A stretch of 64,000 nucleotides of DNA. It comes from Candidatus Moraniibacteriota bacterium. GTDB lineage: Bacteria; Patescibacteriota; Minisyncoccia; Moranbacterales; UBA9337. The stretch lies in the NCBI GenBank assembly GCA_026985555.1, contig JALSQF010000007.1:1099-65098 (forward strand), in the 5' to 3' direction. The notes beneath the pieces were generated by a model that had not been told where the DNA came from, ran no database searches, and worked only from the letters and a program-made list of their open reading frames with translations. This document shows positions 7,670-63,196 of this stretch, one piece after another (within the stretch, counting starts at the first letter, position 1; every line of letters begins with the position of its first letter). A program made the position numbers and the translations under genes.

Positions 7670-7761
7670 AAATATTTTTTAGATAATTCTTTATAAAATT
7701 TAAATTATTCTTATTTTGACAAACTTTTAGAAAAAGGTAAACTTTATAAAGAAAAGTTATT

Positions 7762-8289: not shown

Positions 8290-8300
8290 GAAACATACTA

Positions 8301-10199: not shown

Positions 10200-10211
10200 A
10201 AGTTTATTATT

Positions 10212-11519: not shown

Positions 11520-11521
11520 AT

Positions 11522-24821: not shown

Positions 24822-24944
24822 TTCTTGCCTCCTTTTTTATTCTTTATTTTAAAAAACTTAATTCAAATTATTGTATTGATTTTTTCTTTTTTGTCAAGTT
24901 TTCCTGTTTTTTTGTTGATTGTTTTAATTATTTTGTTCTTTTTT

Positions 24945-24984
24945 CTTTCTGGCTATTTAAATGGATATTTAAATAGCCAGAAAG
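24945..24984. repeat. Perfect 40-bp palindrome, copy 2 of the repeat family; the loop is GGAT, so it is the inverted copy of 19813-19852
   Basis: CTTTCTGGCTATTTAAAT-GGAT-ATTTAAATAGCCAGAAAG. The arms are identical to copy 1 and the loop is its reverse complement. It lies in the divergent intergenic region between the 24821(-) and 25093(+) gene starts. Confidence 0.8.
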
Positions 24985-25092
24985 AAATTTTAATTTAACG
25001 AAAAAGTTTTTAAAATGAAGTTTTATTTTTTGTTTAATAGAGAAGAATATTTATTTGCTCCTTGATTAAATTTATTGTATAATTCAACTAAT

Positions 25093-26370: not shown

Positions 26371-26382
26371 AAAAATAAAAAT

Positions 26383-27141
26383 ATGGAAAACAAAAACAAT
26401 ATTTTAAATACTGCACTACTGGCTGGAATTTTTGTTATGTTAGCTTACTTAATTTTTATTGAAAAAAATATTAATGTGGAAATGATAAATACTAAGGGAG
26501 AAGAAAAAACTATTGCCGTTTCCGCTCAAGCAGAAAAATTTATTAAACCTGACACAGCTTCTTTAAATTTTTCTCTATTAAAAAAATCTAGTAGTGTTGC
26601 CACAGCTACTGATTCAATTAATAAACGTAGCCAGTCTTTAATAAAAGCATTAAAAAAACTAGGTGTTCAAGAAAAAGATATTAAAACAATAAATTATAAT
26701 ATCTATCCAGAATATTTTTATAATGAAGGAAAAAAGAAATTTGATGGATATAGGGTAACTCAACAATTTAAAGTAATTATACGTGATTTAGATAAAGCTT
26801 CTCAAATACTATCTTTAATAAATAATTCAGAAGTAGATAACGTTTCGCAGTTAAATTTTTATATAGATAAAACTGATGAAATAAAAAATAATCTTAGAAA
26901 AGAAGCTATTAAAAAAGCGAAAGAAAAAGCTCGGCAATTGTCAAGAGATTTAGGCGTTTCTTTGAATAAAATTGTGGGTTTTCAAACAAATAAAGGTGGC
27001 CCTTTCTATCAAGAAGCAAAAGCTATGACTTGGGATGCAAGCAAAGTGGAAGGAAACAATAAGAAAAGTGAGCCTATTTTACCTTCAGGAGAAAATAAAT
27101 TTCAAGAAAAAGTAACTATTATTTATAAAATAGATAATTAA
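26383..27141 (+). CDS. SIMPL/DUF541-domain protein (BP26/Omp28-like), membrane-anchored
   Basis: N-terminal TM helix. The spacing of conserved residues (KPDTASLNFSL ... GY ... V ... DL ... A ... A ... LGVSLNKIVGF) matches SIMPL-domain periplasmic proteins. Confidence 0.45.
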   Translation: MENKNNILNTALLAGIFVMLAYLIFIEKNINVEMINTKGEEKTIAVSAQAEKFIKPDTASLNFSLLKKSSSVATATDSINKRSQSLIKALKKLGVQEKDIKTINYNIYPEYFYNEGKKKFDGYRVTQQFKVIIRDLDKASQILSLINNSEVDNVSQLNFYIDKTDEIKNNLRKEAIKKAKEKARQLSRDLGVSLNKIVGFQTNKGGPFYQEAKAMTWDASKVEGNNKKSEPILPSGENKFQEKVTIIYKIDN

Positions 27142-27148
27142 AATAATT

Positions 27149-27820
27149 ATGAGTAGGGTTATTTTAGATATAGAAACAATTGGTAAAAATTTTGATGATT
27201 TAGATAAAAAATCTCAAGAATATCTTTTGCAATTTGCGCAAGACAAAAAGGAAAAAGAAGAAATAAAAGATCGTCTAGCTCTCTATCCTTTTACGGGAGA
27301 AATAGTTGCTATTGGTTTGTTAAATCCAGACACAAATAAAGGTGTAATGTATTATCAAAACAACAAAAAAGGAAAAGAAATTTTTCAAGAAAAAGGAATT
27401 AAATTTGAAACAGGATCAGAAAAAGAAATTTTAAAAAATTTTTGGGAAGACATACGCAGTTATCAGCAAATAATTACTTTTAATGGACGAGGATTTGACG
27501 CTCCTTTTTTACATTTACGGAGTGCTTTATTGAAAATTAGACCAACTAAAAATTTAATGCCTTATCGTTACGATTATAAAATTCATTGTGATTTAATGGA
27601 GCAACTAACTTTTTATAGCGCAACTAGAAAGTTTAATTTAGATTTTTATACGCGATCCTTTGGTATTAAAAGTCCTAAGGATGACGGTGTAGATGGTTCT
27701 CAAGTGGGAGAATTATATAAAAAAGGAAAATATAAGGAAATTGCAAGATATTGTGTGCGTGATTTGCAAGCTACACGAGAATTGTATGAATATTGGGAAA
27801 AATATTTAAAATTGGAATAG
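27149..27820 (+). CDS. RNase-H-like 3'-5' exonuclease (YprB / PolB-exonuclease-like)
   Basis: ExoI-like VILDIETIG, ExoII-like ITFNGRGFDAPFL and ExoIII-like YCVRDLQATRELY motifs. Confidence 0.55.
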   Translation: MSRVILDIETIGKNFDDLDKKSQEYLLQFAQDKKEKEEIKDRLALYPFTGEIVAIGLLNPDTNKGVMYYQNNKKGKEIFQEKGIKFETGSEKEILKNFWEDIRSYQQIITFNGRGFDAPFLHLRSALLKIRPTKNLMPYRYDYKIHCDLMEQLTFYSATRKFNLDFYTRSFGIKSPKDDGVDGSQVGELYKKGKYKEIARYCVRDLQATRELYEYWEKYLKLE

Positions 27821-27825
27821 GGTTT

Positions 27826-28437
27826 ATGTTTAAAAAAGGGGATTTTTCAAAAAATTCTGATATAATAAAAAATGTTTCAGAAACAGAACAATTTTCTGGT
27901 AGTCATATTGTTGGCAAAAAAGAAAAAAGTGAAAATAATCAGGATAATCCAGAAGAGCATACTTTTCAGCAAAGAATGCAAGAGTTAGAAATTAAAAAAC
28001 AGGAACTAAGAAAATTTTTTGGCAAAGAAATTAATTTGGGGAACGCAGAACAGGAATTAAATTTATGGAAAGGAGAACAGCGAGATATAAAACAAGAAAA
28101 AGATAAAGAAAAAAATGGTTTTAAAAAAGTAATTTTAAAAGAAAGAAGTCAGAATAATGAAATGGAAAATGAATTTCAAGCAGTAAAAAAAAGTCTTGTT
28201 TTATTAAGAAAAAAAATAGCTATGAGTTTAGAAAAATGGAAGAATTTAGAAAATAAAAAAGTTACAGATCAAGTAAATTTGATTTATTGGAAAGATGTTT
28301 TTCAAGATATTCTACAAGAGGGTGAAGTAGAACCATTAAAAAATGAAACAGTTAATATGTGGACAAGAAGAATAGTGAAACTAGCTTTTAAAGAAGGTAA
28401 AATTAGCCAATTAGTGCAAAAATTAGAAAATTTATAA
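27826..28437 (+). CDS. Hypothetical charged coiled-coil protein
   Basis: About 40% K/E with heptad periodicity and no TM. The ATG at 27826 was chosen within the track ORF. Confidence 0.35.
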   Translation: MFKKGDFSKNSDIIKNVSETEQFSGSHIVGKKEKSENNQDNPEEHTFQQRMQELEIKKQELRKFFGKEINLGNAEQELNLWKGEQRDIKQEKDKEKNGFKKVILKERSQNNEMENEFQAVKKSLVLLRKKIAMSLEKWKNLENKKVTDQVNLIYWKDVFQDILQEGEVEPLKNETVNMWTRRIVKLAFKEGKISQLVQKLENL

Positions 28438-28456
28438 ATTTAATAATAAAAAAAAT

Positions 28457-28897
28457 ATGTGGAATCAAAATCAAAATAATCAAAAACAAGAGAATTCACA
28501 AGAAAAAAAAGTTAATCTAGATAAATTAAAAAAAGATATTCAGTTTTCTCAAAAAAAAGAACAAGAAAATAGTCAAGAAAAAAGTGAACGAATTTCATCT
28601 TTAGAAAAAAAAGAGAATATTTATGATAAAATTTTAAGAAGCGTCAAAAAACAAGTAGAGGAAGATACTTCTCCTCAAGAAATAAAAAAAGATGCAGAAG
28701 AAATAGCAGATGAGAAAAGTGCGGAAGATCAGGTTAAAATGTTAGTAAAATTAGCTCAACACAGAGGGGTAGTGCATGCAGTAAAAGTAGCTCAACATAT
28801 GGAAAATTATTATATTTTGGATAGACTTCATGACGAAATGAGTTTAGGAGAAAGGATGTATCAATCTTTAGAAAAGGAAAATTTGATTAAAGAATAA
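28457..28897 (+). CDS. Hypothetical acidic/charged small protein
   Basis: 146 aa, Q/E/K-rich, no TM. Confidence 0.3.
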   Translation: MWNQNQNNQKQENSQEKKVNLDKLKKDIQFSQKKEQENSQEKSERISSLEKKENIYDKILRSVKKQVEEDTSPQEIKKDAEEIADEKSAEDQVKMLVKLAQHRGVVHAVKVAQHMENYYILDRLHDEMSLGERMYQSLEKENLIKE

Positions 28898-28903
28898 AAA
28901 TTT

Positions 28904-31393
28904 ATGAATTTAGATTTACTTTTAATTAGTATTATTATTGTTTCTGCTGTAATTTCTTTGCTAAGCGGTCTTTGGTTATTGATAAAAAGTTTTCTTACTT
29001 TTCGGGCGCAAATTAATTATTCTATCAATATGGATTTAGAAATAGTGAGAGTTTCTTTGCCTACTGATGATAATCAGGAACATTCTCTTAATAATCAAGA
29101 ACGACCTGCTTGGAAAAATGAAATAAAATTAATGGAACAATGGTTGGGTACCTTATCAGCATTAAGAGTAAAAAAAACTTGGAAAGAATGGTTTTATGGT
29201 GATCCTTATATTGCTTTAGAAATAACTAATCCTTCCGATGACGAAGAAATTAGTTTTTATTTATCTGTGCCAAAAAAATTTAGAGAAAGAATAGAAAAAC
29301 AAATTCATAGTTTTTTCCCCGAGGCTAAGCTAGAAGGTGTTTCTGATTATACAATTTTTACACCTAATAGTTATACAGCCATAGCTTTTGTTAAATTAAA
29401 AGAAGAACCATTCCTTCCACTTAAAACTTATGAAACAATGGATGCAGATCCCTTAAATGAAATTTCTAATGCTATTAGTAAACTAAACACTATAGAAGAA
29501 GGAGCTACCTTACAATTAGTTCTTGGTCCAGCGCCTAAAGAATGGCGAAGAAATGGTTTAAAAATAGCTCATGAAATGCAACAAGGAAAACAATTAAAAA
29601 AAGTTTACCATTCTTCTTGGTTAGGAAAAGCATTCAAGGAGATAGGAAAAGGGATTTTAACCGTTCTTTTTTATAAAACTAAAACGGATGCTAATATTAG
29701 CAACACAAAGGATAAAGATGAACCGATACAATTAACTCCAGAAGAACAAGAATTAATTAAAACAATAGAAACAAAAGCAAAAAAACCAGCTTTTCAAGTT
29801 AATATTAGAATTATATCTTCAGCTAGTACACCTGAGAGAGCAGAAGAGATTTTAGCGCAGATGGAAAATTCTTTAGCTCAATTTGAAAATCCGGAAGTGA
29901 ATAATTTCGTAATAACGGAAAGAAAAAAAGATAAAAAAATGGTCTTTAATTATATCTTCCGTAATTTTAATCCAGAAAAAGCTATAATTTTAGGAGTAGA
30001 AGAAATTGCTAGTCTTTTTCATTTTCCTACTTCTCTTACTAAAACACCTAAAATTAAATGGCTAAAATCTGGAACAGCTCCTCCGCCTGTACATATTCCT
30101 CAAAAAGGCATTTTATTAGGATTTAATGACTATAGAGGAGTTAAAACAGAAATTCGTTTAGCTGATAATGACAGAAGAAGACATTTATATACTATTGGAC
30201 AAACGGGAACAGGAAAATCTACTTTTTTAACTGAAATGGCTAAACAAGATGTTAAAAATGGAAAAGGGATTTGCGTTGTTGATCCTCATGGTGATTTAGT
30301 AGAGGATATTTTAACTGCTATTCCTAAAGAAAGAGCAGAGGATGTTATATATTTTAATCCGGCTGATACAGAAAGACCTTTGGGTTTAAATATGTTAGAA
30401 TATGAAAAACCAGAGGAAAAAAGTTTTGTAGTAAATGAAATGATTAGTATTTTTGATAGACTTTATGATTTAAAACAAACTGGAGGACCGATGTTTGAAC
30501 AATACGCGCGAAATGCTATGTTGTTAATAATGGAACATCCAGAATCCGGATCTACTTTAATGGAAATTTCTAAAGTCTTAGCCAATGAAGATTTTAGAAA
30601 AATGAAGTTAGATCATTGTAAAAATCAAGTGGTAAAAGATTTTTGGATTAAGGAAGCTGAAAAGGCAGGAGGAGAAGCGGCTTTGGCTAATATCGTTCCT
30701 TATGTAACTTCTAAATTAAATACTTTTGTAACTAATGATATAATGCGTCCTATTATTGCTCAGCAAAAAAGTAGTTTGGATTTTAGAGAAATTATGGATA
30801 GTGGAAAAATATTATTAGTTAATCTTTCTAAGGGAAAACTGGGAGAAATTAATAGTCATCTATTAGGTATGGTGGTAGTGGGAAAAATTTTGATGGCAGC
30901 TCTTAGTAGAGTAGATTTACCAGAAAAGAAAAGAAAAGATTTTTATCTTTATATTGATGAATTTCAAAATGTGACTACTGATTCTATCGCTCAAATTTTA
31001 TCTGAAGCGCGAAAGTATCATCTTAATTTAATTATCGCGCATCAATTTATCGGACAATTAAGTGAAGAAATATCTAAAGCTGTTTTTGGTAATGTAGGTT
31101 CTCTTTGCGCTTTTAGAGTTGGACCAGAAGATGCTGAATTTTTAGAAAAACAATTTGAACCGATTTTTCATCGCAATGATTTAATTAATATAAACAATTA
31201 TAGTTGTTATACTAAATTATTGCTAAACGGAGAAACTAGTCGTCCTTTTGATATGAAAACTTATCCACCCTCTGAAGGTGATCAAGAGTTAGCTAACAAT
31301 ATAAAAGAACTTTCTCGTTTAAAATATGGAAGGGATAAAAAGATAATAGAAGAGGAAATTAATAGTAGAAATGTAAATTTGAGTAAATTTTAA
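28904..31393 (+). CDS. Membrane-anchored VirD4/TraG/TraD-family type IV coupling-protein-like P-loop ATPase
   Basis: N-terminal TM helix, then an uncharacterised domain of about 400 aa, then Walker A GQTGTGKST and Walker B YLYIDEF. The C-terminal DEFQNV...ARKYHLNLIIAHQFIGQL matches the DE...R...QS..QL pattern of the TraG-D_C domain. Confidence 0.55.
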   Translation: MNLDLLLISIIIVSAVISLLSGLWLLIKSFLTFRAQINYSINMDLEIVRVSLPTDDNQEHSLNNQERPAWKNEIKLMEQWLGTLSALRVKKTWKEWFYGDPYIALEITNPSDDEEISFYLSVPKKFRERIEKQIHSFFPEAKLEGVSDYTIFTPNSYTAIAFVKLKEEPFLPLKTYETMDADPLNEISNAISKLNTIEEGATLQLVLGPAPKEWRRNGLKIAHEMQQGKQLKKVYHSSWLGKAFKEIGKGILTVLFYKTKTDANISNTKDKDEPIQLTPEEQELIKTIETKAKKPAFQVNIRIISSASTPERAEEILAQMENSLAQFENPEVNNFVITERKKDKKMVFNYIFRNFNPEKAIILGVEEIASLFHFPTSLTKTPKIKWLKSGTAPPPVHIPQKGILLGFNDYRGVKTEIRLADNDRRRHLYTIGQTGTGKSTFLTEMAKQDVKNGKGICVVDPHGDLVEDILTAIPKERAEDVIYFNPADTERPLGLNMLEYEKPEEKSFVVNEMISIFDRLYDLKQTGGPMFEQYARNAMLLIMEHPESGSTLMEISKVLANEDFRKMKLDHCKNQVVKDFWIKEAEKAGGEAALANIVPYVTSKLNTFVTNDIMRPIIAQQKSSLDFREIMDSGKILLVNLSKGKLGEINSHLLGMVVVGKILMAALSRVDLPEKKRKDFYLYIDEFQNVTTDSIAQILSEARKYHLNLIIAHQFIGQLSEEISKAVFGNVGSLCAFRVGPEDAEFLEKQFEPIFHRNDLININNYSCYTKLLLNGETSRPFDMKTYPPSEGDQELANNIKELSRLKYGRDKKIIEEEINSRNVNLSKF

Positions 31394-31402
31394 TTTATAG
31401 TT

Positions 31403-33940
31403 TTATTTAGATAATAATTTAAATTCTACAGTATTTGTTTTTCTGTTAAGATTAATTTTAATATGAGTTATTAGATTAGTTGGGTTTTGAATAGTTTTAT
31501 TCTCAAGTAATTCTTTGGCTAAAGGAATTTCAATATATTTTTGAATATTTTTACGCACAAGACGAGCACCTTCTTGATCATCAATACTTTTTTCAGTTAT
31601 CCATTTAATAAGATTAGAATCAAAACTTATATTAATTTTTTGATAAGCAAGATTTTTTTCTAGCTCCTTTAAGTGTAAGCGGACTATTTTATTAAGGTTA
31701 GATGAACTGAGTTTTTGAAAAACAAGAATATCATCTAAACGGTTAAGTAATTCAGGACGAAATTGTTTTCTTAATTTTTTTAAAATATCCTTTTTAATTT
31801 CTTCAATTTCTTTTTTTTGTGTTCCTTTTTTTGAATATTTAGAAAATCCAATGGAGTTAATTTGATTAAAATTCTCAGTTCCTAAATTAGAAGTTAGAAT
31901 AATTATAGTATTTTTAAAATCTATTTTGTGTCCACTAGCATCAGTTAGGAAGCCTCCATCTAGTATTTGCAACAAGATGTTACTTATATCAGAGTGAGCT
32001 TTTTCAATTTCGTCAAAAAGAATAAGACTATAAGGTTGACGTTTTATTTTTTCGGTTAATTGTCCGCCTTCTTCATATCCAATATAACCGGCGGGAGCTC
32101 CAATTAAACGTGAGATATTATGACGCTCCATAAACTCGCTCATATCAATACGAATTAAGGATTGAGGAGAATTGAAAAAATAATTGGCTAGACTTTGCGC
32201 TAAAAAAGTTTTTCCAACCCCAGTTGGTCCCACAAAAAGAAAAGAAGCTAGTGGTTTAGGTAAATTAGATATTCCGCTTTGCGAATAATAAAGAGTATCG
32301 GTAATTTTTTCTATAATTTTCTTTTGTCCAATAACAATTTGATTTAATTTTGAAGGGAGTTTTTTTAATTTATCAGACTGAGAAGAAAGAATTTTTTCAA
32401 GAGAGATTCCTGTATTATCAGCAATAGTTTGTGCAACATGTAACAATTCTAGATTTGCTTCTTTTTCTTTTTTATTTTTTAATGTTTTTTTAATTCTTTT
32501 AATTTTATTTAATAATTGCTTTTCTTCTTTTTCTTTTTTAATAGCCTCAGTATAACGTTCTTCTAAAATTAAATATTCCTTTTGTTTAGTTAACTGTTTG
32601 CGATATTGTTTTAATTGGATAATTCTTTTTTCTTGAGTGTCATTCTGCTGATTATGTAAATAAGCAGAACTTTCATCTAAAACGTCAATAGCTTTATCAG
32701 GAAAAAAACGTTCTGGCAAATAACGTTGAGTTAATTGAATAATTTTTTCTAAAATATGATCGGAAATGTTTATGGAATGATATTTTTCAAAATCTTTTCT
32801 AATTCCTTTTAAAATAGTGAGTGTTTCCTGAAAAGAAGGTTCAGTGACTTGAATAGTTTGGAAGCGTCTTTCTAAGGCAGCATCTTTTTCAATGTATTTT
32901 TTATATTCATCAAAAGTGGTGGCGCCAATACATTGTATTTCTCCACGGGATAAAGCAGGTTTTAAAATATTAGCTGCATCTAGAGATCCATTAACATTCC
33001 CTGTTCCCACTAGAGAATGAATTTCATCTATAAAAAGGATTATATTTTTATCATGTTTTACCTCTTTTATGATTTCCTTAAGTCGGTTTTCAAATTCTCC
33101 TCTAAAAGTTGTTCCTGCCACGACAGCTGTTAAATCAAGGTTGATAATTTTTTTATTAAGAAGATTATAAGGAACGTTTCCTTTTTTTATTTCTAAAGCT
33201 AATTTTTCTACAAGAGCTGTTTTACCTACTCCTGGATCACCAATTAAAAGTGGATTGTTTTTTATTTTTCTACTAAGAATATTTATTATTTTATTAATTT
33301 CTTTTTTTCTTCCTATGATAGAATGAGATTTGTAAAAATTTTGTTTATTAAGAATTGTGCCAAATTCTTTTAAATAGCCGCTTTCTTTTTCATATTCAGA
33401 GGATTTTAAATTAGAACGAAAAGGTAAATTAAATAATTTGGCTAACTGATCAGGTGTTATTTTCATTTGAGAAAAAGTGGTATCAGATGTTTCTATAGTT
33501 CTAAGTGGCTTATCAAAAGTATCAATTATTTTTTTAACAGAAGGTAGTGGATTTTCTATTAGGGTATAAATTAAGTGTTCCGTTCCTACATAAGAAAAAC
33601 CAGCTGTTCCCGCAATGGAAAAAGCTCTTATAAGAATATTTTTTAATTCTTGAGAGAAATTGTTTAAAGTGGTGTTATTCAGTTTACTAGAAAAAAGATG
33701 CTTAATTTTTTGAGATTCAATAGTAGTTTTAAACTGTTGTAAAATCTTTTTATTTTCAATACTTTGCGCTCCCATTTGAATTAAAATATTTCTTCCAGCA
33801 CTTCCTTTTTGTGATAAAATAGCCAAAAGTAAATGATCAGGATTAACTTTTTTAAAGCCATAATAACGAGATATTTCAATCGCTTTTAAAAGACTTTCTT
33901 TAGCATTGTGAGTTAATTTTTGCAATATTTTATCGTTCAT
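31403..33940 (-). CDS. Clp/Hsp100 AAA+ chaperone (ClpC-like ATP-binding subunit)
   Basis: Two Clp_N repeats, NBD1 GDPGVGKT with DEIH, NBD2 GPTGVGKT with [10 protein letters not shown], and the sensor-2 GARLVRK. The spacing between the NBDs (about 335 aa) fits ClpC better than ClpB. Confidence 0.85.
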
Positions 33941-55813: not shown

Positions 55814-57793
55814 ATGATTTTCAGTCAGAAAACAAAAAGAAAAAAAAAGAATAAACTTAAAATTTTATTTTTAGCAGTTTTGATAATTTTTATTTTTTCA
55901 GGAAGTAATTTAAAGGTGTGTTTAGCAGAAAGAACATGGCAGCCGTCTGATGCATTTGGTATTCAAAAAAGTGGTTGGTTATATTATTTAGGTGGGTGGG
56001 GATTAACAGATTATGTATATGATTTTTTTACTGGACATATTAAAAATAACTGGAGATCAATGGGTCAAGTAATAAAGGATACAGCTACAGATGGTTTTCT
56101 TTGGGTTTTTAATTGGATATTATTTGCAGTTTGGTGGGTTTTAGCTTGGTTTATTGGAATAGCAGGGTTACTTTTTGATTGGGCAATAGATGCTAATAAT
56201 TTAAAAGCAATTATTCATAATGAAGGGATTTATGATGCCTGGAAGATTGTGAGAGATTTTCTTAATTTAGGATTTATTTTAGTTTTACTTTTCAGTGCTT
56301 TTTCTACGGTATTTCAAATTGAAAAATATCATTTAAAAAAAATTCTTTTGATGTTAGTTTTGATGGCGCTTTTAGTTAATTTTAGTTTTCCTATTTCACG
56401 TTTCATTATTGATTCTTCTAATATGACGATGTATTATTTATTAAATCAACGTTTCAGTGACGAATCTAGGAGCGATAGCATTAGCTCTAAAATAATGTAT
56501 TATTCTAACATAACCAGACAGTTTGTTCCTAATATAAGTAAAACAAATGCAAATTATACAAAGCAAATTTTAATTGTAATCATTTTTACTTTCATTTTAA
56601 TGATAACCTTGGCATCTCTAGCAGCTATTATGGTTGTGCGTATTTTTGCTTTGGCTTTGCTAATTATTTTTTCTTCGGTTGGTTTTGTAGCTGCTATTTT
56701 GCCTAGCGCAGAATCTTTTTCTAGTAAATGGTGGGATAATTTATTTAAATATTCTTTTGTGGGACCAACAATGATATTTATGTTAATTATATCTTTTCGG
56801 ATGATGGATAGCTTAGGTGGGAGCGAATTAGGAAGCGCCATAAATCAATTAAAAACTTTAGCTTCTGATTATGATCCTGTTAGCGGAGAAATAGCAAAAC
56901 AAAGCATAGCTGACGCGGCTTATTTTTTTCTTCCGATAGTTTTACTCTGGGCTTCTATTTTGGTGGCGCAATCCATGGGTGTTTATGGAGCTAGCGCAGT
57001 GGTTAATACAGCAGGTAGAGTTAAAAGTTGGGGAGCAAAATATTTAACAGGTTATAGTTTAGCTAAGTGGGGTGTAAAAACTTTGCCCAAAAAAGCAGTT
57101 CAATCAACCGGTGTTCCTGGTGGCGTGAAACAAAGATGGCTTAGTTTTAAAGACAGGTTAGAGTCTAAACAAAAAAGTAGAGAAGCTCGTGTGGCAGCTC
57201 GTTTAGGAGATAAAACAGCTAAAAGAAAAGATATGTTAAGAAGAGCGGATGAATATGAAAAAGAACATATTATAGATGATGAATTAAAAAATAGAGCTAA
57301 GAAAGGAGATAATGCAGCTGCTTATGCTTTGGCTAATAGAGGGAAAATGGATAGAGAGACCTATTTGAGTGTGCAGGATAAAATAAAAGATAAAGAAGTT
57401 CTGGATATAATTAATGGCAAAGTTAAAGAAAAGAGAATTGATTTAGTGGTTGATTATAAAGTTAATAATCCTATAGAATTAAGTAAAGCAAGAAATCAAT
57501 TAGCTCAAATTCAGGGTGTAGAACCAGGATCAATTAATGATGAAGATGTAAAAGAATATATTGTTCGTGAAGAAATAGGAAATTTATCGCCAGAACAATT
57601 TGCAGGACAAAACTGGAAGGGTATAAATACTGATATTAGTAGGAGAGGAAATGAAAAATTAGCTGATACAATTAAAGAAGTAACGGAAAAAACTTTTGAT
57701 GAAATGTCAGAAGATGCTAAAAAAAGAATACGTTCTAATGTAAGTGCTAATCAAGCTAAAGTTCTTAGAAAAGAATTTGCGGTAATTGTTTAA
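55814..57793 (+). CDS. VirB6/TrbL-like polytopic membrane protein (T4SS channel candidate)
   Basis: Signal/anchor, then about six TM helices rich in Trp/Phe, then a 250-aa charged cytoplasmic tail. Assigned by topology plus its position in the cluster with VirB3-like and VirB4 genes. Confidence 0.35.
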   Translation: MIFSQKTKRKKKNKLKILFLAVLIIFIFSGSNLKVCLAERTWQPSDAFGIQKSGWLYYLGGWGLTDYVYDFFTGHIKNNWRSMGQVIKDTATDGFLWVFNWILFAVWWVLAWFIGIAGLLFDWAIDANNLKAIIHNEGIYDAWKIVRDFLNLGFILVLLFSAFSTVFQIEKYHLKKILLMLVLMALLVNFSFPISRFIIDSSNMTMYYLLNQRFSDESRSDSISSKIMYYSNITRQFVPNISKTNANYTKQILIVIIFTFILMITLASLAAIMVVRIFALALLIIFSSVGFVAAILPSAESFSSKWWDNLFKYSFVGPTMIFMLIISFRMMDSLGGSELGSAINQLKTLASDYDPVSGEIAKQSIADAAYFFLPIVLLWASILVAQSMGVYGASAVVNTAGRVKSWGAKYLTGYSLAKWGVKTLPKKAVQSTGVPGGVKQRWLSFKDRLESKQKSREARVAARLGDKTAKRKDMLRRADEYEKEHIIDDELKNRAKKGDNAAAYALANRGKMDRETYLSVQDKIKDKEVLDIINGKVKEKRIDLVVDYKVNNPIELSKARNQLAQIQGVEPGSINDEDVKEYIVREEIGNLSPEQFAGQNWKGINTDISRRGNEKLADTIKEVTEKTFDEMSEDAKKRIRSNVSANQAKVLRKEFAVIV

Positions 57794-57801
57794 TTTGTCA
57801 T

Positions 57802-59079
57802 ATGCAAACTAAATTTAAATTTTCTCAACTGAATAAAAAAAAGCAAATAGAGTTGTGCACCCTGCCACAAAGTGTTTTTGTTACAGTTAATCCAGATGAT
57901 GAAACAGAGGAAGATATAGAAAATCGTCAAGAAAAATTTTTAGCTTTACCGACAGATATAAAGGAAAAATTAGTTTCTTATGAAACGGCTAAAATTATTC
58001 AAAAGATTGGTAAAAAATATAACTTAGAGCTATTGCAATTAGCCTCTCTAGCGCGTGCTATCAGAAGTTATTATTTTAAAGAATTAAAGCTAGATGATTT
58101 TCCGCGAATTTTTATTAGAGAGGCAAAAATTGATAGGGAAACAGCGCAAAATATTTCTCAAGAACTAATTAATAAAATTATAAACAATAACAATGTATCA
58201 AATAAAATAAAAGAAAATATAATTTTATTGCCGATACAACAGGCCTTAAATCAGTATGAAAGGTTAGGAGAGCAGACAATTACTAGTGAAAGAATAAAAA
58301 TTAAACCTTTATCGGAATCGGCCCGTCCATCTATAAAAAATTGGATTTATGATTATCATTATCATTTAGGAACAGGAAGCCATACCGTTATGGAAAGAGG
58401 AAACTATTTGTTTCATAGTGAAAATACAAAAAAATTAACCAATATGGAAAGAAAGAAATTAGCGCTTATTTTAAAATCATTGGATGAGCAAGATCCTTTA
58501 AAAATAGATAAAGAAAAAGAGGAAGTTATTTTTCCGGTAGAAAATAATATAGATTTAGTTGATCTTTATCCAAAACCGAAAAAAAAGATGCGACATATTA
58601 AACAGAAAATAGAAAATAATTTTCCTAATAATTTTTCTTCAAATAAAATTTCTAAAAATATTTCTAAAAATAAACAAAGAAAAGCTTCTTTTCAAAAGAA
58701 AAAGGTTAAATTAGCTAAAGAAACTATTTCTCATCCAGAACATTGGTTAGTAGGTCAAGATCATAAAACGATGTTTCAGTCTGTCTTTAATGAATTAAAG
58801 AACAAAGAAAAGGATCAAGCACAATTAAAAACAGAAATGAAAAATAAAGTTGATAAAACTAAACAATATAAAGAAAATAAGCAGTCTGATCAAAAAACAA
58901 TGAAAAAGGATTCAAAAAGTATTGATAATACTAAAAAAAATAAAGATGAATTTAATCAATTAAAGAAAGATACTAAAAACAACTATTTAAAATCAAGATT
59001 GTTTCGCATTCGTCCCAGTGGCGCGCAAAGAGAGATTTTAAAAAGCGCGCAAAATGTAATTAACTTAAAAGAAAAATAA
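57802..59079 (+). CDS. Hypothetical soluble protein in the T4SS-like cluster
   Basis: 425 aa, K/E/N-rich, no TM. Confidence 0.3.
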   Translation: MQTKFKFSQLNKKKQIELCTLPQSVFVTVNPDDETEEDIENRQEKFLALPTDIKEKLVSYETAKIIQKIGKKYNLELLQLASLARAIRSYYFKELKLDDFPRIFIREAKIDRETAQNISQELINKIINNNNVSNKIKENIILLPIQQALNQYERLGEQTITSERIKIKPLSESARPSIKNWIYDYHYHLGTGSHTVMERGNYLFHSENTKKLTNMERKKLALILKSLDEQDPLKIDKEKEEVIFPVENNIDLVDLYPKPKKKMRHIKQKIENNFPNNFSSNKISKNISKNKQRKASFQKKKVKLAKETISHPEHWLVGQDHKTMFQSVFNELKNKEKDQAQLKTEMKNKVDKTKQYKENKQSDQKTMKKDSKSIDNTKKNKDEFNQLKKDTKNNYLKSRLFRIRPSGAQREILKSAQNVINLKEK

Positions 59080-59085
59080 ACAACA

Positions 59086-59484
59086 ATGCTATTTAATGTT
59101 CCTCAGTTTGTTGATATAGAAGATAAAATAGTAGGGCCCTTTACTGCTAAGCAGTTGCTTTGGATGTTTGGTATGGCTGCTGTTTTATTAATTGTATGGA
59201 ATGTTTTTGATCAAAAAACTTTTTGGATTTCAAGTATTCCTATTGTTTTACTTTTTTTAGCGTTAGCTTTTTATCGTCCTTTTGGATTGCCTTTTATTAA
59301 ATTTATTTTTCTAACAATCTTATTTTTAATAAGACCTAAGGTGTATGTTTGGCAGAGAGAGGTAGGTCCCATAAGAAAAAATCTGGTTGAAAATTTAGAA
59401 AAAGTTTCTAAGAAAAAGAAAAAAACTAAAAAATTTGAAACAAAAAAAGCGAAACAAATAGCTCAGTTAATGGATAAATACTAA
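59086..59484 (+). CDS. PrgI/VirB3-like small membrane protein
   Basis: 132 aa with two TM helices after a short N-terminus (GPFTAKQLLWMFGMAAVLLIV). Size, topology and its position directly upstream of VirB4 match VirB3/PrgI/TcpE-like proteins. Confidence 0.4.
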   Translation: MLFNVPQFVDIEDKIVGPFTAKQLLWMFGMAAVLLIVWNVFDQKTFWISSIPIVLLFLALAFYRPFGLPFIKFIFLTILFLIRPKVYVWQREVGPIRKNLVENLEKVSKKKKKTKKFETKKAKQIAQLMDKY

Positions 59485-59513
59485 TTTATTATTTATTGGT
59501 AAATAATTATTTT

Positions 59514-60197
59514 ATGAAATTATTTAAAAAGAAAGCAACTAAAAATCCAGCCATTAGCACTCAACGTTATGTAGACGTGGATAGTGTCAAGGATAATGTG
59601 ATTATTTTAAAAAATGGTTCTTTAAGAGCGGTTTTAATGGTGTCTTCTATAAATTTTGATTTAAAATCTGCTGAGGAGCAGGATGCTATTATTGCGAGTT
59701 ATCAAAATTTTCTTAATTCTTTAGATTTCTCTGTGCAAATTATAGTCAACTCTCGTCGTTTTGATATTAACCCTTATTTGAAAATGTTAAGAGAAAAAGA
59801 AATGTTACAAGAAAATGAATTATTAAAAATGCAAATAGCTGAATATCATGATTTTATTAAAAGTCTAGTAGATGTTTCTCAAATAATGTCAAAAATGTTT
59901 TATATAGTTGTTCCTTTTTATCCAGTGGAGAATAAAAAAGGTGGTATAATAGATAGAATTACAAATGTAATTATGCCTGAAAAAAAATTTATTTTTAATA
60001 AAGAAATTTTTGAAACGTATAAAAATCAGCTTTGGCAAAGAGTGGAGCAGGTACAGACAGCTTTGAATGGAACAGGAATTAGAATGGTTTTATTAAAAAC
60101 GGACGAATTAATAGAGTTATTGTATAATTCTTATAATCCATCTTTAGAGAGATATAGTACACTTAAAGATGTGGATAAGTTAGATTTTGAAATTTAA
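59514..60197 (+). CDS. VirB4 N-terminal-domain-like protein (possible split VirB4)
   Basis: DNVIILKNGSLRAVLMVSSINFDLKSAEEQDAIIASYQNFLNSLDFSVQIIVNSRR resembles the conserved N-terminal domain of VirB4/TrbE/CagE ATPases. The track ORF starts at a TTG (59496), so the ATG at 59514 is preferred. Confidence 0.45.
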   Translation: MKLFKKKATKNPAISTQRYVDVDSVKDNVIILKNGSLRAVLMVSSINFDLKSAEEQDAIIASYQNFLNSLDFSVQIIVNSRRFDINPYLKMLREKEMLQENELLKMQIAEYHDFIKSLVDVSQIMSKMFYIVVPFYPVENKKGGIIDRITNVIMPEKKFIFNKEIFETYKNQLWQRVEQVQTALNGTGIRMVLLKTDELIELLYNSYNPSLERYSTLKDVDKLDFEI

Positions 60198-60229
60198 TGT
60201 TTTAAATAATTATTTATTTAATTTTTATA

Positions 60230-62083
60230 GTGGTTATGTTTTTTAGCGAAAAGAAGCCTAAAACAAAAAAAGAAATAGAAACAATGGATGCCATTTCAGC
60301 TAATGAGAGTTTATATAAAGAAGGATTAAGCACCTTGCGTGATTTAATTGCCCCAGCTGCTATTAAAACTGCTCCTCAATATGTAGAAATAGGTGATGCT
60401 TTTTCTAAAACGATTTTTGTAATGACCTATCCTAAATTTTTAAATACAAACTGGTTTTCTCCCATTATTAATATTGATTTTCCTCTAAATATTGCTATGT
60501 TCATACATCCAATGGAAACAGCTGACGTTTTAAGAAATTTGAGAAAAAGTGCTACCCAAGTGCAATCTCAAATAAATATAGAAGCTGAAGAGGGAAAAAT
60601 TCGTAATCCAGTTTTAGAATCAGCTCTTACTAATATAGAGGATTTGCGAGATAAACTGCAACAAGGAACAGAAAGGTTTTTTCGTTTTGGTCTTTATATC
60701 ACTGTTTTTGGTGAAGATTTAAGTGAAGCAGAGAAAAATATTGCTTCGGTAGAAACTATTTTAGAAGCCCAATTAGTTTATACTAAACCAGCTATTATGA
60801 GAATGGAGCAGGGGTTGATTTCAACCATACCTTTAGGTGAGGACAAATTAGATGCAGCTAATAATTTAAACACTTCTCCTTTATCTACCACTTTTCCTTT
60901 TGTTTCTTCCGATTTAACTTCTAATCAGGGAATTTTATATGGAATCAATCGTCATAATAATAGCCTTATTTTATTTGATCGTTTTGAAATGGAAAATGCT
61001 AATATGGTTATTTTTGCTAAATCAGGAGCAGGAAAAAGTTATATGGTTAAATTAGAAATTCTAAGATCAATGATGCTGGATACCGATATTATCGTAATTG
61101 ATCCCGAAAATGAATATAAGCATTTAAGTGAAACAGTGGGAGGTTCTTTTGTAAAGATTTCTCTTAATTCTAAAGTGCATCTTAATCCATTTGATTTACC
61201 CAAACCCAGAAAAGATGAGGATAATGCAGATATTTTTAGGTCTAGCGTAGCTCAATTAATTGGTTTGTTACATATTATGTTAGGTTCGGTAACTCCTGAA
61301 GAAGATTCTATATTAGATGAAGCTATTAGAGAAACTTATGCAGTTAGAGATATAACTCCAGAAAGTAATTTTAATATTTTAACTAAAGATGCTTTTCCTA
61401 CAATGACAGATCTTTATGAAGTTTTACGTAACATGGATGGAGCTGAATCCTTAACTCAACGTTTAAAAAAATATACGGAAGGAATTTTTGCTGGATTTAC
61501 TAATCATCATACTAATATAGAAATAAATAATCAATTGATGGTATTTAATATTAGAGATTTAGAAGATGAATTAAGGCCAGTGGCAATGCATTTAATTATG
61601 CAATATGTTTGGAACGAAATGAGAAGTGAATTGAGAAAAAGATTGTTAATAGTAGATGAGGCTTGGATAATGATGCGACATGAAGATGCAGCCGCTTTTT
61701 TCTTTAGTATAGCTAAACGTTGTCGTAAGTATTATACGGGATTAACTACTATTACACAGGATATTAATGATTTTATGACATCTAGATATGGAAAACCTAT
61801 TATAACCAACTCTTCTTTACAAGTACTTTTAAGACAATCTCCAGCTTCTATTGATACCATTACTGAAACTTTTTACCTTACTGAACAAGAAAAATTTTTA
61901 CTTTTAGAAAGTAACGTAGGAGAAGGAATATTTTTTGCTGGCAATAAGCATGCAGCAATAAAAGTGGTTGCTTCTTACAGTGAAGATCAAATTATAACTT
62001 CTGATCCACGTCAATTATTAGAAATAGAAGAGGCTAAAAAAGAATTAGAAGAGGAAGATGAGCATTTTGAAGAAAGAAAATAA
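60230..62083 (+). CDS. VirB4-family type IV secretion ATPase (central plus C-terminal ATPase domains)
   Basis: Central VEIGDAFSKTIFVMTYPKFLNTNWFSPIINIDF region, Walker A AKSGAGKSY, and the VirB4-type Walker B LLIVDEAWIMM (the DEAW motif). GTG start per the ORF track. Confidence 0.7.
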   Translation: MVMFFSEKKPKTKKEIETMDAISANESLYKEGLSTLRDLIAPAAIKTAPQYVEIGDAFSKTIFVMTYPKFLNTNWFSPIINIDFPLNIAMFIHPMETADVLRNLRKSATQVQSQINIEAEEGKIRNPVLESALTNIEDLRDKLQQGTERFFRFGLYITVFGEDLSEAEKNIASVETILEAQLVYTKPAIMRMEQGLISTIPLGEDKLDAANNLNTSPLSTTFPFVSSDLTSNQGILYGINRHNNSLILFDRFEMENANMVIFAKSGAGKSYMVKLEILRSMMLDTDIIVIDPENEYKHLSETVGGSFVKISLNSKVHLNPFDLPKPRKDEDNADIFRSSVAQLIGLLHIMLGSVTPEEDSILDEAIRETYAVRDITPESNFNILTKDAFPTMTDLYEVLRNMDGAESLTQRLKKYTEGIFAGFTNHHTNIEINNQLMVFNIRDLEDELRPVAMHLIMQYVWNEMRSELRKRLLIVDEAWIMMRHEDAAAFFFSIAKRCRKYYTGLTTITQDINDFMTSRYGKPIITNSSLQVLLRQSPASIDTITETFYLTEQEKFLLLESNVGEGIFFAGNKHAAIKVVASYSEDQIITSDPRQLLEIEEAKKELEEEDEHFEERK

Positions 62084-62099
62084 AAATAAATTTTAAATT

Positions 62100-62492
62100 A
62101 TGTTTTTGGGACTACCTTTTTCAATTGCTATATTTTATATAGTAGCTCTGGCAATAGCCATACTAAAAGATTTATTAGATTTGGTTTTTATAACATCTCT
62201 TCCTGGTATTGGATCTATTTTAACTTTGCTTTTTTCTGGTTTAATATTCATTCTTATTTTTTTAGCTGGAATAATGGGTATAATTTTAGGCAAAGGAAAA
62301 ACGAAAATAAGTTCTACTATGAGGTTTTTAAGGTTTTTGAAACGTTTCGGAGTATTTTTAGGAGGAACAGTTACAGAGGAGCTGTTGGGTTTAAATTTTT
62401 TTCCTTTTGAAACAGTTACAGTAGCAATAATTATGTGGATGCATGGTCATTCCTATAAGAAAGCCAAAAAAGAAAAAAACCAAGGTAGTTAA
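62100..62492 (+). CDS. Small polytopic membrane protein
   Basis: 130 aa, about four TM helices, basic C-terminus. Confidence 0.3.
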   Translation: MFLGLPFSIAIFYIVALAIAILKDLLDLVFITSLPGIGSILTLLFSGLIFILIFLAGIMGIILGKGKTKISSTMRFLRFLKRFGVFLGGTVTEELLGLNFFPFETVTVAIIMWMHGHSYKKAKKEKNQGS

Positions 62493-62518
62493 TTATTCTA
62501 ATTTTAAAATAATAGCAG

Positions 62519-63196
62519 ATGAGAAAAAATATAGAGAAAAAAATAAAACCGTTAGATAAAAAATTTTTTTTCGTTTCCATTTTTTTCCTAATTTTGATTT
62601 TAATAAGTCAATATTATCCTATAAATAAGGACGACACTTTTCAAAATATTAGTTTAGCTATTGTTTTTATGTTGGTAATACCTATTTTATTTATTAAAAT
62701 AGTTCTCAAAGAAAAACTAGAAAGCTATGGCTTTAAATTAATAACCAAAAAGAAAGTAATTTTTAATATTATATTGTTTTTAATGATTGTTCTAGTGTTA
62801 TTTTTAGCACTATTTAAATATATTTTAATTAAGCAAAATTATAATTTACCTCTTATTTTTCATCAATATTTTCTCTCCTTTTTTCTTTTAGAGTTTTTAG
62901 TTATGTCCCTAGTTTTATTATTGATAGAAGTTTTTTTCAGAGGCGTTATTCAGTTTTTTTTAGAACAATATTTTAGTTCAATAAAAGCTATATTATTGCA
63001 ATCAATATTATTTTTTCTTCTTTTGTATTTTTCTGGCTCAAAAAATGAAATATTAGAATGGCCTTTTTTACAATTGATTTTAATAGCTCCTCTAGCTGGT
63101 TGGATTGCTAAAGAAAGTAAATCCTGGTTTTATTCTTGGCTATTTAGTTGGTTATTTATGATTTTAAGTGATGCAATTATTATTTATTTTAAATAA
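62519..63196 (+). CDS. CPBP-family (CAAX protease / Abi) intramembrane metalloprotease-like protein
   Basis: Polytopic. LLIEVFFRGVIQ matches CPBP motif 1 (EExxxR with FRG). Confidence 0.4.
   Translation: MRKNIEKKIKPLDKKFFFVSIFFLILILISQYYPINKDDTFQNISLAIVFMLVIPILFIKIVLKEKLESYGFKLITKKKVIFNIILFLMIVLVLFLALFKYILIKQNYNLPLIFHQYFLSFFLLEFLVMSLVLLLIEVFFRGVIQFFLEQYFSSIKAILLQSILFFLLLYFSGSKNEILEWPFLQLILIAPLAGWIAKESKSWFYSWLFSWLFMILSDAIIIYFK

Follow-up and report, generated by a model that had tools for sequence, protein, structure and literature searches.

Coupling proteins (T4CPs) such as TrwB of plasmid R388, VirD4, Cag-beta and DotL contain a P-loop NBD with an all-alpha insertion, and in canonical members a TM domain, usually of two helices, reportedly leads straight into the NBD. 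Several T4CPs and VirB4 are served by small regulators or adaptors, as exemplified by the pairs CagZ-Cag-beta, IcmS/IcmW/LvgA-DotL and VirB3-VirB4. In the sole genetically tractable species of Patescibacteria, epibiotic growth requires the T4SS, and a Tn-seq study (Wang et al. 2023) recognised no coupling protein within the Se T4SS cluster. A recent survey (Quinonero-Coronel et al. 2025; PMC12102498) reports VirD4-type homologues in 2,918 and VirB4 in 2,417 of 3,035 genomes and states that T4CPs are often encoded apart from virB4, with 148 of 5,713 t4cp homologues located near that gene. Moreover, it reports that the t4cp homologue of Southlakia, which may or may not be of the DUF8128 type described below, is non-essential and that the T4SS is essential there.

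The gene studied here lies within a window of 64,000 nucleotides, the whole stretch of DNA that was analysed, from a Candidatus Moraniibacteriota bacterium. The open reading frame 28904..31393 (+ strand, as are all domains given below; ATG start) encodes a protein of 829 amino acids, an identical copy of which exists in public data together with homologues numbering in the thousands at E=0. The protein begins with a single TM helix (28916..28993), a strong hydrophobic segment at residues ~5-30 that is modelled as one long helix. It is followed by an N-domain of ~370 amino acids (29006..30118; residues 35-405), a P-loop ATPase of the VirD4/TrwB type with a helical insertion (30119..31282), and a C-terminal helical tail (31283..31393) with the conserved sequence ...KELSRLKYGRD...EI..R, for which two helices are modelled at residues 794-808 and 812-828. 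The Walker A motif GQTGTGKS is located at 30197-30220 (residues 432-439), and the Walker B/DEFQN motif at 30944-30970 forms part of a TraG-D_C stretch, YLYIDEFQNV...ARKYHLNLIIAHQFIGQL, spanning residues 681-719. Both stretches are invariant among diverse homologues, the invariant residues being G432, G435, G437, K438, D685, E686, H713 and Q714. In the predicted full-length model, for which the pTM is 0.47 and the inter-domain confidence is low, the all-alpha domain corresponds to a helical block at residues ~503-618, and the N-domain contains a variable disordered loop at residues ~236-274. Thus far, the initial annotation had been accurate, with exact coordinates, the Walker A and B and TraG-D_C-like motifs in place, and the single TM helix recovered. 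A TM segment (KD19 of at least 1.6) is present in 29 of 34 short-form homologues and in none of 23 long forms, and because the latter are devoid of any TM helix, membrane anchoring is not universal in the family.

Profile searches place the motor among the coupling proteins. The Pfam family TrwB_AAD_bind matched residues 419-736 (4e-11, 42.8 bits with a gathering score of 20.5), and T4SS-DNA_transf (32.7 bits, gathering score 20.1), TraG-D_C (23.8 bits, gathering score 22) and DUF87 likewise exceeded their thresholds, so that the three families proposed initially for checking all match. Among 22 diverse family members, TrwB_AAD_bind was matched by 21, T4SS-DNA_transf by 12 and TraG-D_C by all 22. 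The best PDB sequence matches were TrwB (2.6e-7) and DotL (2e-5), and a Foldseek comparison of the predicted ATPase with TrwB gave target-normalised TM-scores of 0.61-0.65 at 16-17% identity. In contrast, FtsK_SpoIIIE (E 0.052, under its cut-off) and HerA_C (E 0.043) were far weaker in Pfam, HerA entries in the PDB profile search reached E 0.01-0.04 compared with ~1e-7 for TrwB, and the NCBIfam equivalog models all scored far under their cut-offs, e.g., HerA with 14 bits against 970 and CD1115 with 44 bits against 250. These sequence matches support the assignment as a putative membrane-anchored homologue of VirD4/TraD-type coupling proteins, rather than of FtsK/SpoIIIE or HerA, as had been surmised.

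The weak HerA matches, together with a PADLOC match to mad8 (54 bits) and the occurrence of relatives on plasmids and in a phage, could be taken to indicate that the protein serves an ICE as its active conjugative T4CP, or is a defence ATPase of the MADS/HerA type. However, the mad8 match is limited to the P-loop region (residues 423-746), and neither a relaxase, an integrase nor other mad genes were detected in the window; among the three upstream genes PADLOC yielded no MADS match and solely a weak DEDDh match for an exonuclease. Moreover, the GC content is uniform, the neighbours are housekeeping genes, and the family extends across Patescibacteria classes with 63-83% identity among many genomes, which is consistent with vertical inheritance. 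A mobile or defence function is therefore scarcely credible.

The protein departs from canonical T4CPs in that its N-terminal anchor does not directly precede the NBD; one TM helix is followed by the additional ~370-aa domain. This domain had been described as novel and without recognisable homology. Although residues 35-405 had no match in the copy of Pfam searched, the precomputed annotation of the identical protein and of all 120 homologues listed assigns PF26449 (DUF8128), which revises that view. DUF8128 is very widespread and extends to the coupling proteins of phage G and of conjugative plasmids from monoderm bacteria and archaea; a literature search on DUF8128, and on replication-relaxation proteins with DUF87, returned nothing relevant. 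The N-domain is predicted to adopt an alpha/beta fold that resembles the N-terminal domain of VirB4/TrwK, its sole significant structural relatives. At the sequence level, hhalign comparisons were not significant, either with a profile of 56 VirB4 N-terminal domains (profile-profile, E 0.32) or with single sequences of the VirB4 N-terminal domain or TrsD, and we therefore treat the putative kinship as structural only. When candidates for a full VirB4 profile were inspected for TrsD-VirB4 fusions, the long VirB4 homologues proved to be without TrsD.

An HMM built from the N-domain recovered plasmid, phage and archaeal members (E 3e-19 to 1.5e-39). These relatives include proteins encoded on B. 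subtilis plasmids (WP_121549396.1 on NZ_CP032854.1 and WP_144625398.1 on NZ_OX419581.1), a protein of Embleya (WP_331738717.1 on NZ_CP108778.1) and gp156 of Bacillus phage G. As in the window protein, with which they share 24-30% identity over 80-90% of the length, a DUF8128-like N-domain is followed by an ATPase of the VirD4 type that carries the TraG-D_C motif. The architecture thus occurs within conjugation-type T4SS operons of Bacillota, Actinomycetota, haloarchaea and phage G, where the T4CP gene is encoded beside VirB4 and/or a Replic_Relax protein. In the phage G, haloarchaeal and Embleya loci its immediate predecessor is VirB4, and on the Bacillus and Embleya plasmids the next gene encodes the Replic_Relax protein. 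The window gene, in contrast, is chromosomal, is linked to neither relaxase nor T4SS genes, and is preceded by a small partner gene. The VirD4 protein of pLS20 was also considered as a member; it is a canonical 2-TM protein and therefore stands outside the DUF8128 lineage.

Given the VirB4-type N-domain, the protein might be a second VirB4-like assembly ATPase, i.e., a subunit that energises or assembles the T4SS or its pilus rather than receiving substrates. Apart from the predicted fold, the whole-protein architecture is colinear with that of VirB4, and the linker motif LNTEELASIFHFP is similar to LNTSPLSTTFPFV of VirB4. However, the motor of the window protein differs from VirB4/TrwK, and from the patescibacterial TrsD and VirB4 pair, in matching VirD4 families: AAA_10, P-loop_TraG and CagE were not matched in Pfam (AAA_10 was matched weakly by two of the 22 family members), and TrwK was absent from the PDB profile-search matches in which TrwB scored 2.6e-7. 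In addition, the gene does not adjoin VirB3/PrgI, sequence similarity of the N-domain to that of VirB4 is not detectable, and the plasmid relatives coexist with a bona fide VirB4 and adjoin Replic_Relax, which is the position of a T4CP. We consider an assembly role improbable.

The neighbourhood is organised as described in the initial annotation. Upstream of the ATPase gene lie a PolB-exo/RNase-H-like exonuclease (27149-27820; PF10108, 1e-21) and two highly charged proteins (27793-28437, without family, and 28457-28897), and downstream lie the convergent clpC gene (31403-33940) and a type IV pilus locus starting at 34086. From this arrangement a DNA import and processing module had been proposed that would scavenge nucleotides by combining competence-like pili with a coupling-type translocase and the 3'-5' exonuclease next to it. 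The tight same-strand gene run 25075-31393, within which no terminator-like site was found on the + strand, is compatible with such a unit, as are the nearby pilus locus and the conservation of the block in an 83%-identical relative; a promoter scan showed no enrichment over shuffles and is uninformative because the DNA is AT-rich. Nevertheless, when every window neighbour was compared by tblastn with 80 species-level loci and the ORFs within +/-6 kb were clustered without bias, the exonuclease was found within 10 kb of the ATPase in one of the 80 loci and adjacent to it in none; ClpC came within that distance in three, PilM in two and the first charged protein in none. The block of exonuclease, charged protein and ATPase is kept only in the 83%-identical relative, which alone has a homologue of the first charged protein, and is already lost in a Moranbacterium of 68% identity. 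Furthermore, the window exonuclease lacks relatives in the phage and plasmid loci; the '3'-5' exonuclease' that lies at the border of the conjugation locus in Embleya is unrelated to it. In Southlakia, deletion of comEC abolishes competence, and DNA uptake therefore proceeds via ComEC (review PMC12857230). Since only the product of 28457-28897 is conserved, the module fails the synteny criterion set for it in the initial annotation and is rejected, and an import function appears very improbable.

This second charged protein, referred to as the type-1 partner (28457..28897, + strand), is by its conservation across loci the sole genuine conserved partner of the ATPase among its window neighbours. 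It is a small, hydrophilic protein of 146 amino acids whose stop codon lies 6 nt before the ATPase start, and whose C-terminal conserved core reads ...KG[VI]xxA[VI]xx[VA]...[DN]P[YH][IL]xDxFHDxL; no Pfam family, database name or TM segment could be assigned to it. With an iterated HMM, it was detected as the gene immediately preceding the ATPase in 18 of the 80 loci and in two further ones (E 1e-13 to 1e-32). The same HMM matches residues ~40-130 of ~27 long-form ATPases without a TM helix, which therefore represent fusions of the partner to the ATPase N-terminus, where it takes the place of the TM helix. In other lineages a second, unrelated small partner (type-2) replaces type-1; a relaxed type-1 HMM gave no significant match to the type-2 upstream ORFs, and Pfam yielded no credible family for the partner families or the long-form N-extension. 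Homologues of type-2 or of 'down212' and a second paralogue of the ATPase were not found in the window, and type-1 is missing from the plasmid and phage DUF8128 loci. A small protein whose gene neighbours that of its ATPase, and which some lineages join to the ATPase N-terminus, is reminiscent of CagZ-Cag-beta, IcmS/IcmW/LvgA-DotL and VirB3-VirB4, including VirB3-VirB4 fusions. The analogy draws on what is established for these systems, together with PDB entry 8dol, encountered in the Foldseek search. The type-1 partner differs in having no sequence similarity to CagZ, IcmS/IcmW/LvgA or VirB3, and from the last of these also in being soluble.

A candidate cognate T4SS cluster, inferred to be linked to the ATPase, is located at 55814..63196 on the + strand (Pfam P-loop_TraG/AAA_10 and PrgI) and encodes a VirB6-like multi-TM protein (from 55814), PrgI/VirB3 (from 59086), a TrsD-like protein (from 59496) and VirB4 (60230-62083; families of the AAA_10/P-loop_TraG/CagE type). 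Its distance from the ATPase gene, put at 25 kb initially, amounts to 24-29 kb, depending on whether the cluster start (55814) or VirB4 (60230) is taken. The VirB4, PrgI and TrsD-like proteins of the window have counterparts on the Embleya plasmid, where the matching genes stand immediately before that of the DUF8128-type T4CP. The cluster itself encodes no coupling protein and no relaxase; relaxase families were not detected among the annotated window ORFs, nor was a Replic_Relax homologue in the window or in 83 CPR loci. In being VirD4-type, chromosomal, far from virB4 and without a relaxase, the gene almost certainly belongs to the 't4cp' class of Quinonero-Coronel et al. 2025 (PMC12102498), which, as far as that survey was searched, makes no mention of the DUF8128 N-domain, the VirB4-like fold, partner genes or fusions.

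The dispersed location also raises the question whether the ATPase is an exapted motor, i.e., a T4CP descendant that no longer works with a T4SS and, together with its partner, drives another membrane-associated or cytoplasmic translocation or remodelling of DNA or protein. This would fit the excess of VirD4-type over VirB4 genomes and the rarity of t4cp near virB4 in the survey (PMC12102498), mirrored here by the lack of T4SS-cluster genes within 10 kb of the ATPase in all 80 loci, as well as the dispensability of the Southlakia homologue, with the caveat on its type noted above. It would equally suit the long forms, which lack a TM helix and reside in a secY-adk-map...ndk housekeeping neighbourhood, and the lineage-specific partners missing from the plasmid relatives. 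On the other hand, a location apart from virB4 is common for T4CPs according to the same source, incompleteness of MAGs inflates the apparent absence of VirB4, the ancestral operon partners PrgI, TrsD and VirB4 are all kept in the window genome, and the conserved neighbours point to no alternative pathway. We regard such an exaptation as possible, though doubtful.

Taken together, the best explanation as a whole, to which we assign a probability of roughly 0.6, is that the gene represents a distinct T4CP lineage that has been domesticated in Patescibacteria, acts with a small partner and probably serves the chromosomal T4SS. These ultra-small bacteria would have kept the coupling motor of an ancestral conjugation machine, built from a membrane anchor, a DUF8128 N-domain with a VirB4-like fold, a hexameric TrwB/VirD4-type P-loop motor with an all-alpha insertion and a conserved tail, as a gene that is now chromosomal and vertically conserved. 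During domestication the relaxase would have been lost, the gene displaced from the PrgI-TrsD-VirB4 cluster, and the small soluble partner gained immediately upstream, to be fused or swapped in other lineages. The ATPase may form a membrane-proximal hexamer in which DUF8128 would provide a docking platform, comparable to the VirB4 N-domain on VirB3/VirB8, and the partner could act as an adaptor or regulator like CagZ for Cag-beta or IcmS/W for DotL; ATP hydrolysis would then drive the delivery of a substrate unrelated to conjugation, with the chromosomal T4SS as its most plausible recipient. Of these elements, the analysis shows the architecture, the family ties, the pattern of separate and fused partners, the missing relaxase and the lack of synteny with the exonuclease. 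A bolder version, which we judge rather unlikely, holds that DUF8128-type ATPases form a hitherto undescribed third branch of the VirB4/VirD4 motor superfamily, in which a retained VirB4-type docking domain at the N-terminus is combined with a VirD4-type motor, either as an evolutionary stage between the two T4SS ATPases or as the form ancestral to the coupling protein; in Patescibacteria they would have become core machinery of near-universal occurrence, equipped with a dedicated adaptor, be it separate, fused or swapped, and delivering non-DNA cargo required for the epibiotic lifestyle.

With respect to the biology of these bacteria, the analysis removes the tempting reading of the locus as a DNA scavenging module as unsupported and offers a concrete handle on the coupling step and the substrate of the Patescibacteria T4SS. 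The dispersed t4cp homologues, left unexplained in the 2025 survey (PMC12102498), almost certainly include this gene, whose coupling-protein lineage is found beside the PrgI-TrsD-VirB4 homologues of an Actinomycetota plasmid and, in phage G as well as on a haloarchaeal plasmid, beside VirB4. The predicted VirB4-like docking domain prompts a structural hypothesis on how docking of a T4CP might proceed without the usual TM domain, and the partner and the ATPase form a two-gene unit in which the partner is a candidate adaptor.

The gene proposed in the initial annotation was confirmed at 28904-31393 on the plus strand, where an ATG start opens a reading frame of 829 amino acids. The predicted membrane anchor corresponds to a strongly hydrophobic stretch at residues ~5-30, and the motor motifs are likewise present, with Walker A (GQTGTGKS) at residues 432-439 and the Walker B and TraG-D_C motifs at residues 681-719 (YLYIDEFQNV...ARKYHLNLIIAHQFIGQL). 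Residues ~410-750 match the Pfam models TrwB_AAD_bind, T4SS-DNA_transf, DUF87 and TraG-D_C, all above the gathering score. No NCBIfam match reached its threshold; ranking highest were those to CD1115, a VirD4-like family, and to models of TraD. When PDB sequences were searched with a profile, TrwB (2.6e-7), DotL (2e-5) and HerA (~0.01) were returned, without any match to TrwK. Among 22 diverse members of the family, DUF87 and TraG-D_C were found in all 22, TrwB_AAD_bind in 21, and AAA_10 in just two. Judged by sequence, the motor is VirD4-type, not VirB4-type. The close homologues all belong to Moranbacteria and other Patescibacteria. Within the Moranbacteria, identities are 63-83% for the whole protein and 50-74% for the N-domain, where LTPEEQE and FHFP-S-T-TPKIKWLK are among the invariant motifs. 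On this basis the ATPase is a core gene under strong constraint. The GC content is ~27% across the whole window.

The region between the membrane helix and the motor had been described as novel and devoid of recognisable homology. This description has to be withdrawn, as PF26449 is precomputed at the N-terminus of the identical protein and of all 120 listed homologues; a second annotation source names this family DUF8128. The Pfam copy used here matched nothing in residues 1-400 because it predates the PF26449 model. A search of residues 35-405 against 1.84 billion cluster representatives produced 1,758 clusters with E <= 1e-3, of which 153 reached E <= 1e-30; in the full-length matches (~800-930 aa) DUF8128 is N-terminal. 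The predicted model of the full-length ATPase, in which the inter-domain geometry is poorly defined (pTM 0.47), matches complete TrwK chains in colinear order across ~870-950 columns (E ~1e-13); for TrwB and Cag-beta the alignment is limited to the C-terminal half, with target-normalised TM-scores of 0.61-0.65 and ~0.5, respectively. A profile of 128 N-domain sequences did not significantly match one built from the N-region of patescibacterial VirB4 (E 0.32), the sole aligned piece being a linker motif (LNTEELASIFHFP versus LNTSPLSTTFPFV). At the level of the families, profile alignment with VirB4 gave E 1.7e-4 for the ATPase halves and a colinear full-length alignment at E 5.7e-5. As sequence-level confirmation was not obtained, the term VirB4-N-domain-like is a structural statement that rests on the predicted model.

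The family is not confined to Patescibacteria. A tblastn search with the whole ATPase against 72,556 plasmids yielded 404 records, 24 of which align over 80% or more of the query with 24-30% identity and derive from Bacillus, Streptomyces/Embleya, Clostridium, haloarchaea, Sulfolobus and others. The N-domain alone retrieved 16 plasmids (haloarchaea, B. subtilis) and Bacillus phage G, and the patescibacterial N-domain HMM matched proteins of B. subtilis (3e-30 and 1.5e-39), Embleya (3e-19) and phage G (gp156, 7e-33). The contexts of these relatives are conjugation loci. On the B. subtilis plasmids the ATPase relative is followed by a Replic_Relax protein, TcpD/TcpE and an AAA_10 VirB4-type ATPase, and the order on the Embleya plasmid is PrgI(+TrsD-like), XF1762, VirB4, ATPase relative, Replic_Relax and NlpC/P60. 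On the plasmid of Halalkalicoccus sp. CGA53 (NZ_CP144124.1, locus L087), a VirB4-containing 'conjugal transfer protein' directly precedes a free-standing DUF8128-like ORF (7704-9047, 447 aa, E 1.7e-26), which overlaps by 4 nt the start of the gene for a 1,023-aa ATPase (9044-12115) and shows that the N-domain can be separated as a module. In phage G (locus L088, 2192-6334), gp155, a TrsD-like+VirB4 fusion, directly precedes gp156, a protein of 825 aa that is annotated as 'MsbA-like' and comprises the full DUF8128 and VirD4-type ATPase; the two are a T4SS ATPase pair in a jumbo phage genome.

The T4SS cluster of the window (55814-63196, plus strand) encodes a multi-TM VirB6-like protein of 659 aa, a charged 425-aa protein without family, PrgI/VirB3 (59086), a TrsD-like protein (59496, 233 aa), VirB4 (60230-62083) and two small membrane proteins, and it contains neither a coupling protein nor a relaxase. 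VirB4 is 34% identical to the Embleya VirB4 over 592 aa (E 1.6e-108), and PrgI matches the Embleya PrgI gene. The same Embleya gene, together with phage G gp155, is also matched by the TrsD-like protein, which shows a faint TraC_F_IV match. Given these matches and the plasmid gene orders, relatives of the T4SS genes and of the ATPase are operon neighbours outside Patescibacteria. In the window, T4SS genes and ATPase are separated by 24-29 kb, in line with the ~25 kb first estimated, with housekeeping genes around. Among the annotated ORFs of the window there was no relaxase, and a search for Replic_Relax homologues found none, either in the window or across 83 patescibacterial loci.

The neighbourhood itself was described correctly. 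A gene for an SLT-type transglycosylase (25075) and one for a SIMPL/DUF541 protein (26383) are followed by the PolB-exo/RNase-H-like exonuclease (27149-27820), a first charged ORF (27793-28437, plus strand, 214 aa, TTG start, without family) that overlaps the exonuclease gene, and a second charged ORF (28457-28897, plus strand, without family). Beyond the ATPase lie the convergent gene for ClpC (31403-33940) and, from 34086, the type IV pilus locus. A perfect 20-bp stem at 24942-24987 (TTTCTTTCTGGCTATTTAAAT...ATTTAAATAGCCAGAAAGAAA, then a T-run), located between a minus-strand gene (24300-24821) and the SLT gene, is the sole strong terminator-like hairpin of the region; it lies upstream of the whole gene run 25075-31393 and is probably a terminator bounding its start. 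Two further genes deserve mention. The isoleucyl-tRNA synthetase (20664-24227, plus strand, 1,187 aa) carries a His_Phos_1 histidine-phosphatase insert (RHG motif, residues 512-671, E 3.7e-33) that splits its tRNA-synt_1 catalytic domain and recurs in an 83%-identical relative. Within the pilus locus, a stand-alone response-regulator receiver domain (38708-39094, plus strand, 128 aa) lies between the PilB- and PilT-type ATPases, as it does in the close relative.

From this arrangement a DNA import and processing module comprising the ATPase, the exonuclease and the pili had been proposed. Synteny does not support this proposal. Scanning one genome per species gave 80 loci across Patescibacteria, including Moran-, Komeili-, Uhr-, Nomura-, Woese-, Peregrini- and Magasanikbacteria, and every window neighbour was searched against them by tblastn within +/-10 kb. 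The exonuclease was found near the ATPase homologue in a single locus, 6.7 kb off, SIMPL in one, ClpC in three and PilM in two; the SLT protein and the first charged protein were found in none. Only the second charged protein recurs, in 9 of the 80 loci and each time directly upstream of the ATPase. Moreover, unbiased clustering of ORFs within +/-6 kb revealed no widely kept DNA-processing gene. The 83%-identical relative retains the entire block IleRS-SLT-SIMPL-Exo-227aa-161aa-ATPase-ClpC-PilM, and a 68%-identical Moranbacterium just the upstream 145-aa ORF. The first charged protein, with a homologue in the 83%-identical relative alone (E 2e-12), is a fast-evolving or lineage-specific gene.

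The second charged protein, hereafter the type-1 partner, ends 6 nt before the ATPase ATG; it belongs to no Pfam family, is unnamed in the sources searched and lacks a TM segment. An HMM iterated from it recovered 18 upstream ORFs besides the window's own (E 1e-13 to 1e-32), with the conserved core ...KG[VI]xxA[VI]xx[VA]...[DN]P[YH][IL]xDxFHDxL. The ATPases occur in short forms (~790-870 aa), 29 of 34 with a TM helix ahead of the N-domain, the other five appearing to have truncated or miscalled starts, and in long forms (~900-970 aa), none of 23 with such a helix. In virtually every long form (27 loci and several database proteins; best E 1e-10 to 1e-12) the HMM matches residues ~40-130, and it matches no TM-anchored short form. 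This is a Rosetta-stone fusion, which marks the small protein as a functional partner of the ATPase; once fused, the small protein stands in place of the membrane helix. The long forms (L021, L022, L031, L032, L041, L042 and others) have a conserved genomic home that differs from that of the short forms, a housekeeping setting with secY-adk-map upstream and ndk and a metallo-beta-lactamase-fold protein downstream. In 16 further loci (L007, L011, L012, L013, L015, L025, L026, L039, L040, L052, L056, L057, L066, L068, L071 and L073) a second, apparently unrelated family of 150-315 aa, type-2, is encoded directly upstream of the ATPase, with the C-terminal motif ...IExILSEDLxDLY...KGEETA...WLKxIPGVNKFFLEQEAKIKTDKI. 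Downstream, 11 of these 16 share a gene for a ~212-aa protein (EGVFDGQNMVGPDGKxYSVPANYASKSKLVEGD...), most also with a DnaX-like gene; neither protein has a credible Pfam family. Of the ~70 loci whose upstream sequence was usable, 61 have a type-1 partner, type-2 partner or fusion; neither partner family occurs in the related plasmid loci.

Taken together, we interpret the ATPase as a coupling protein of a distinct, little-described lineage combining DUF8128 with a VirD4-type motor, which entered Patescibacteria along with the monoderm-type T4SS, assigned to MPF-FATA in a survey (PMC12102498). The gene would then have been domesticated: it is chromosomal, vertically conserved and relaxase-less, it lies apart from the T4SS cluster, and lineage-specific small partners accompany it. 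This agrees with the counts of the same survey, whose authors leave room for exaptation: 5,713 VirD4-type homologues in 2,918 of 3,035 genomes, just 148 near virB4, and just 109 relaxases (PMC12102498). Wang et al. 2023 likewise described a Southlakia T4SS cluster without recognisable coupling and relaxase proteins. The main rival explanation is full exaptation to a T4SS-independent role. Three observations speak for it: the homologues are more widely distributed than VirB4 (2,918 versus 2,417 genomes), long forms lack a TM helix, and the Southlakia homologue, which may or may not be DUF8128-type, is reported to be non-essential. Under the coupling-protein interpretation, a hexameric motor would be held at the membrane by its own helix, and long forms would be recruited by other means. 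Much as the VirB4 N-domain docks on VirB3/VirB8, DUF8128 could provide a docking layer close to the membrane, and the small partner might act as an adaptor or regulator, comparable to CagZ/Cag-beta, IcmSW/DotL and VirB3-VirB4 fusions. Through ATP hydrolysis, a non-conjugative substrate would be delivered, the chromosomal T4SS being its most plausible destination.

T4CP homologues have been reported from Patescibacteria before, Pfam already lists the N-domain as a DUF, and the ATPase is not a new kind of system. In the literature searched we came across no mention of a VirB4-like fold for DUF8128, of DUF8128 as the mark of a T4CP lineage shared with Bacillota, Actinomycetota, haloarchaeal plasmids and phage G, or of a conserved partner gene that can also be fused or replaced. 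The ATPase and its partner bear on the cargo of the essential patescibacterial T4SS and its mode of transport, and are useful to T4SS and CPR specialists because they provide testable handles on this question.
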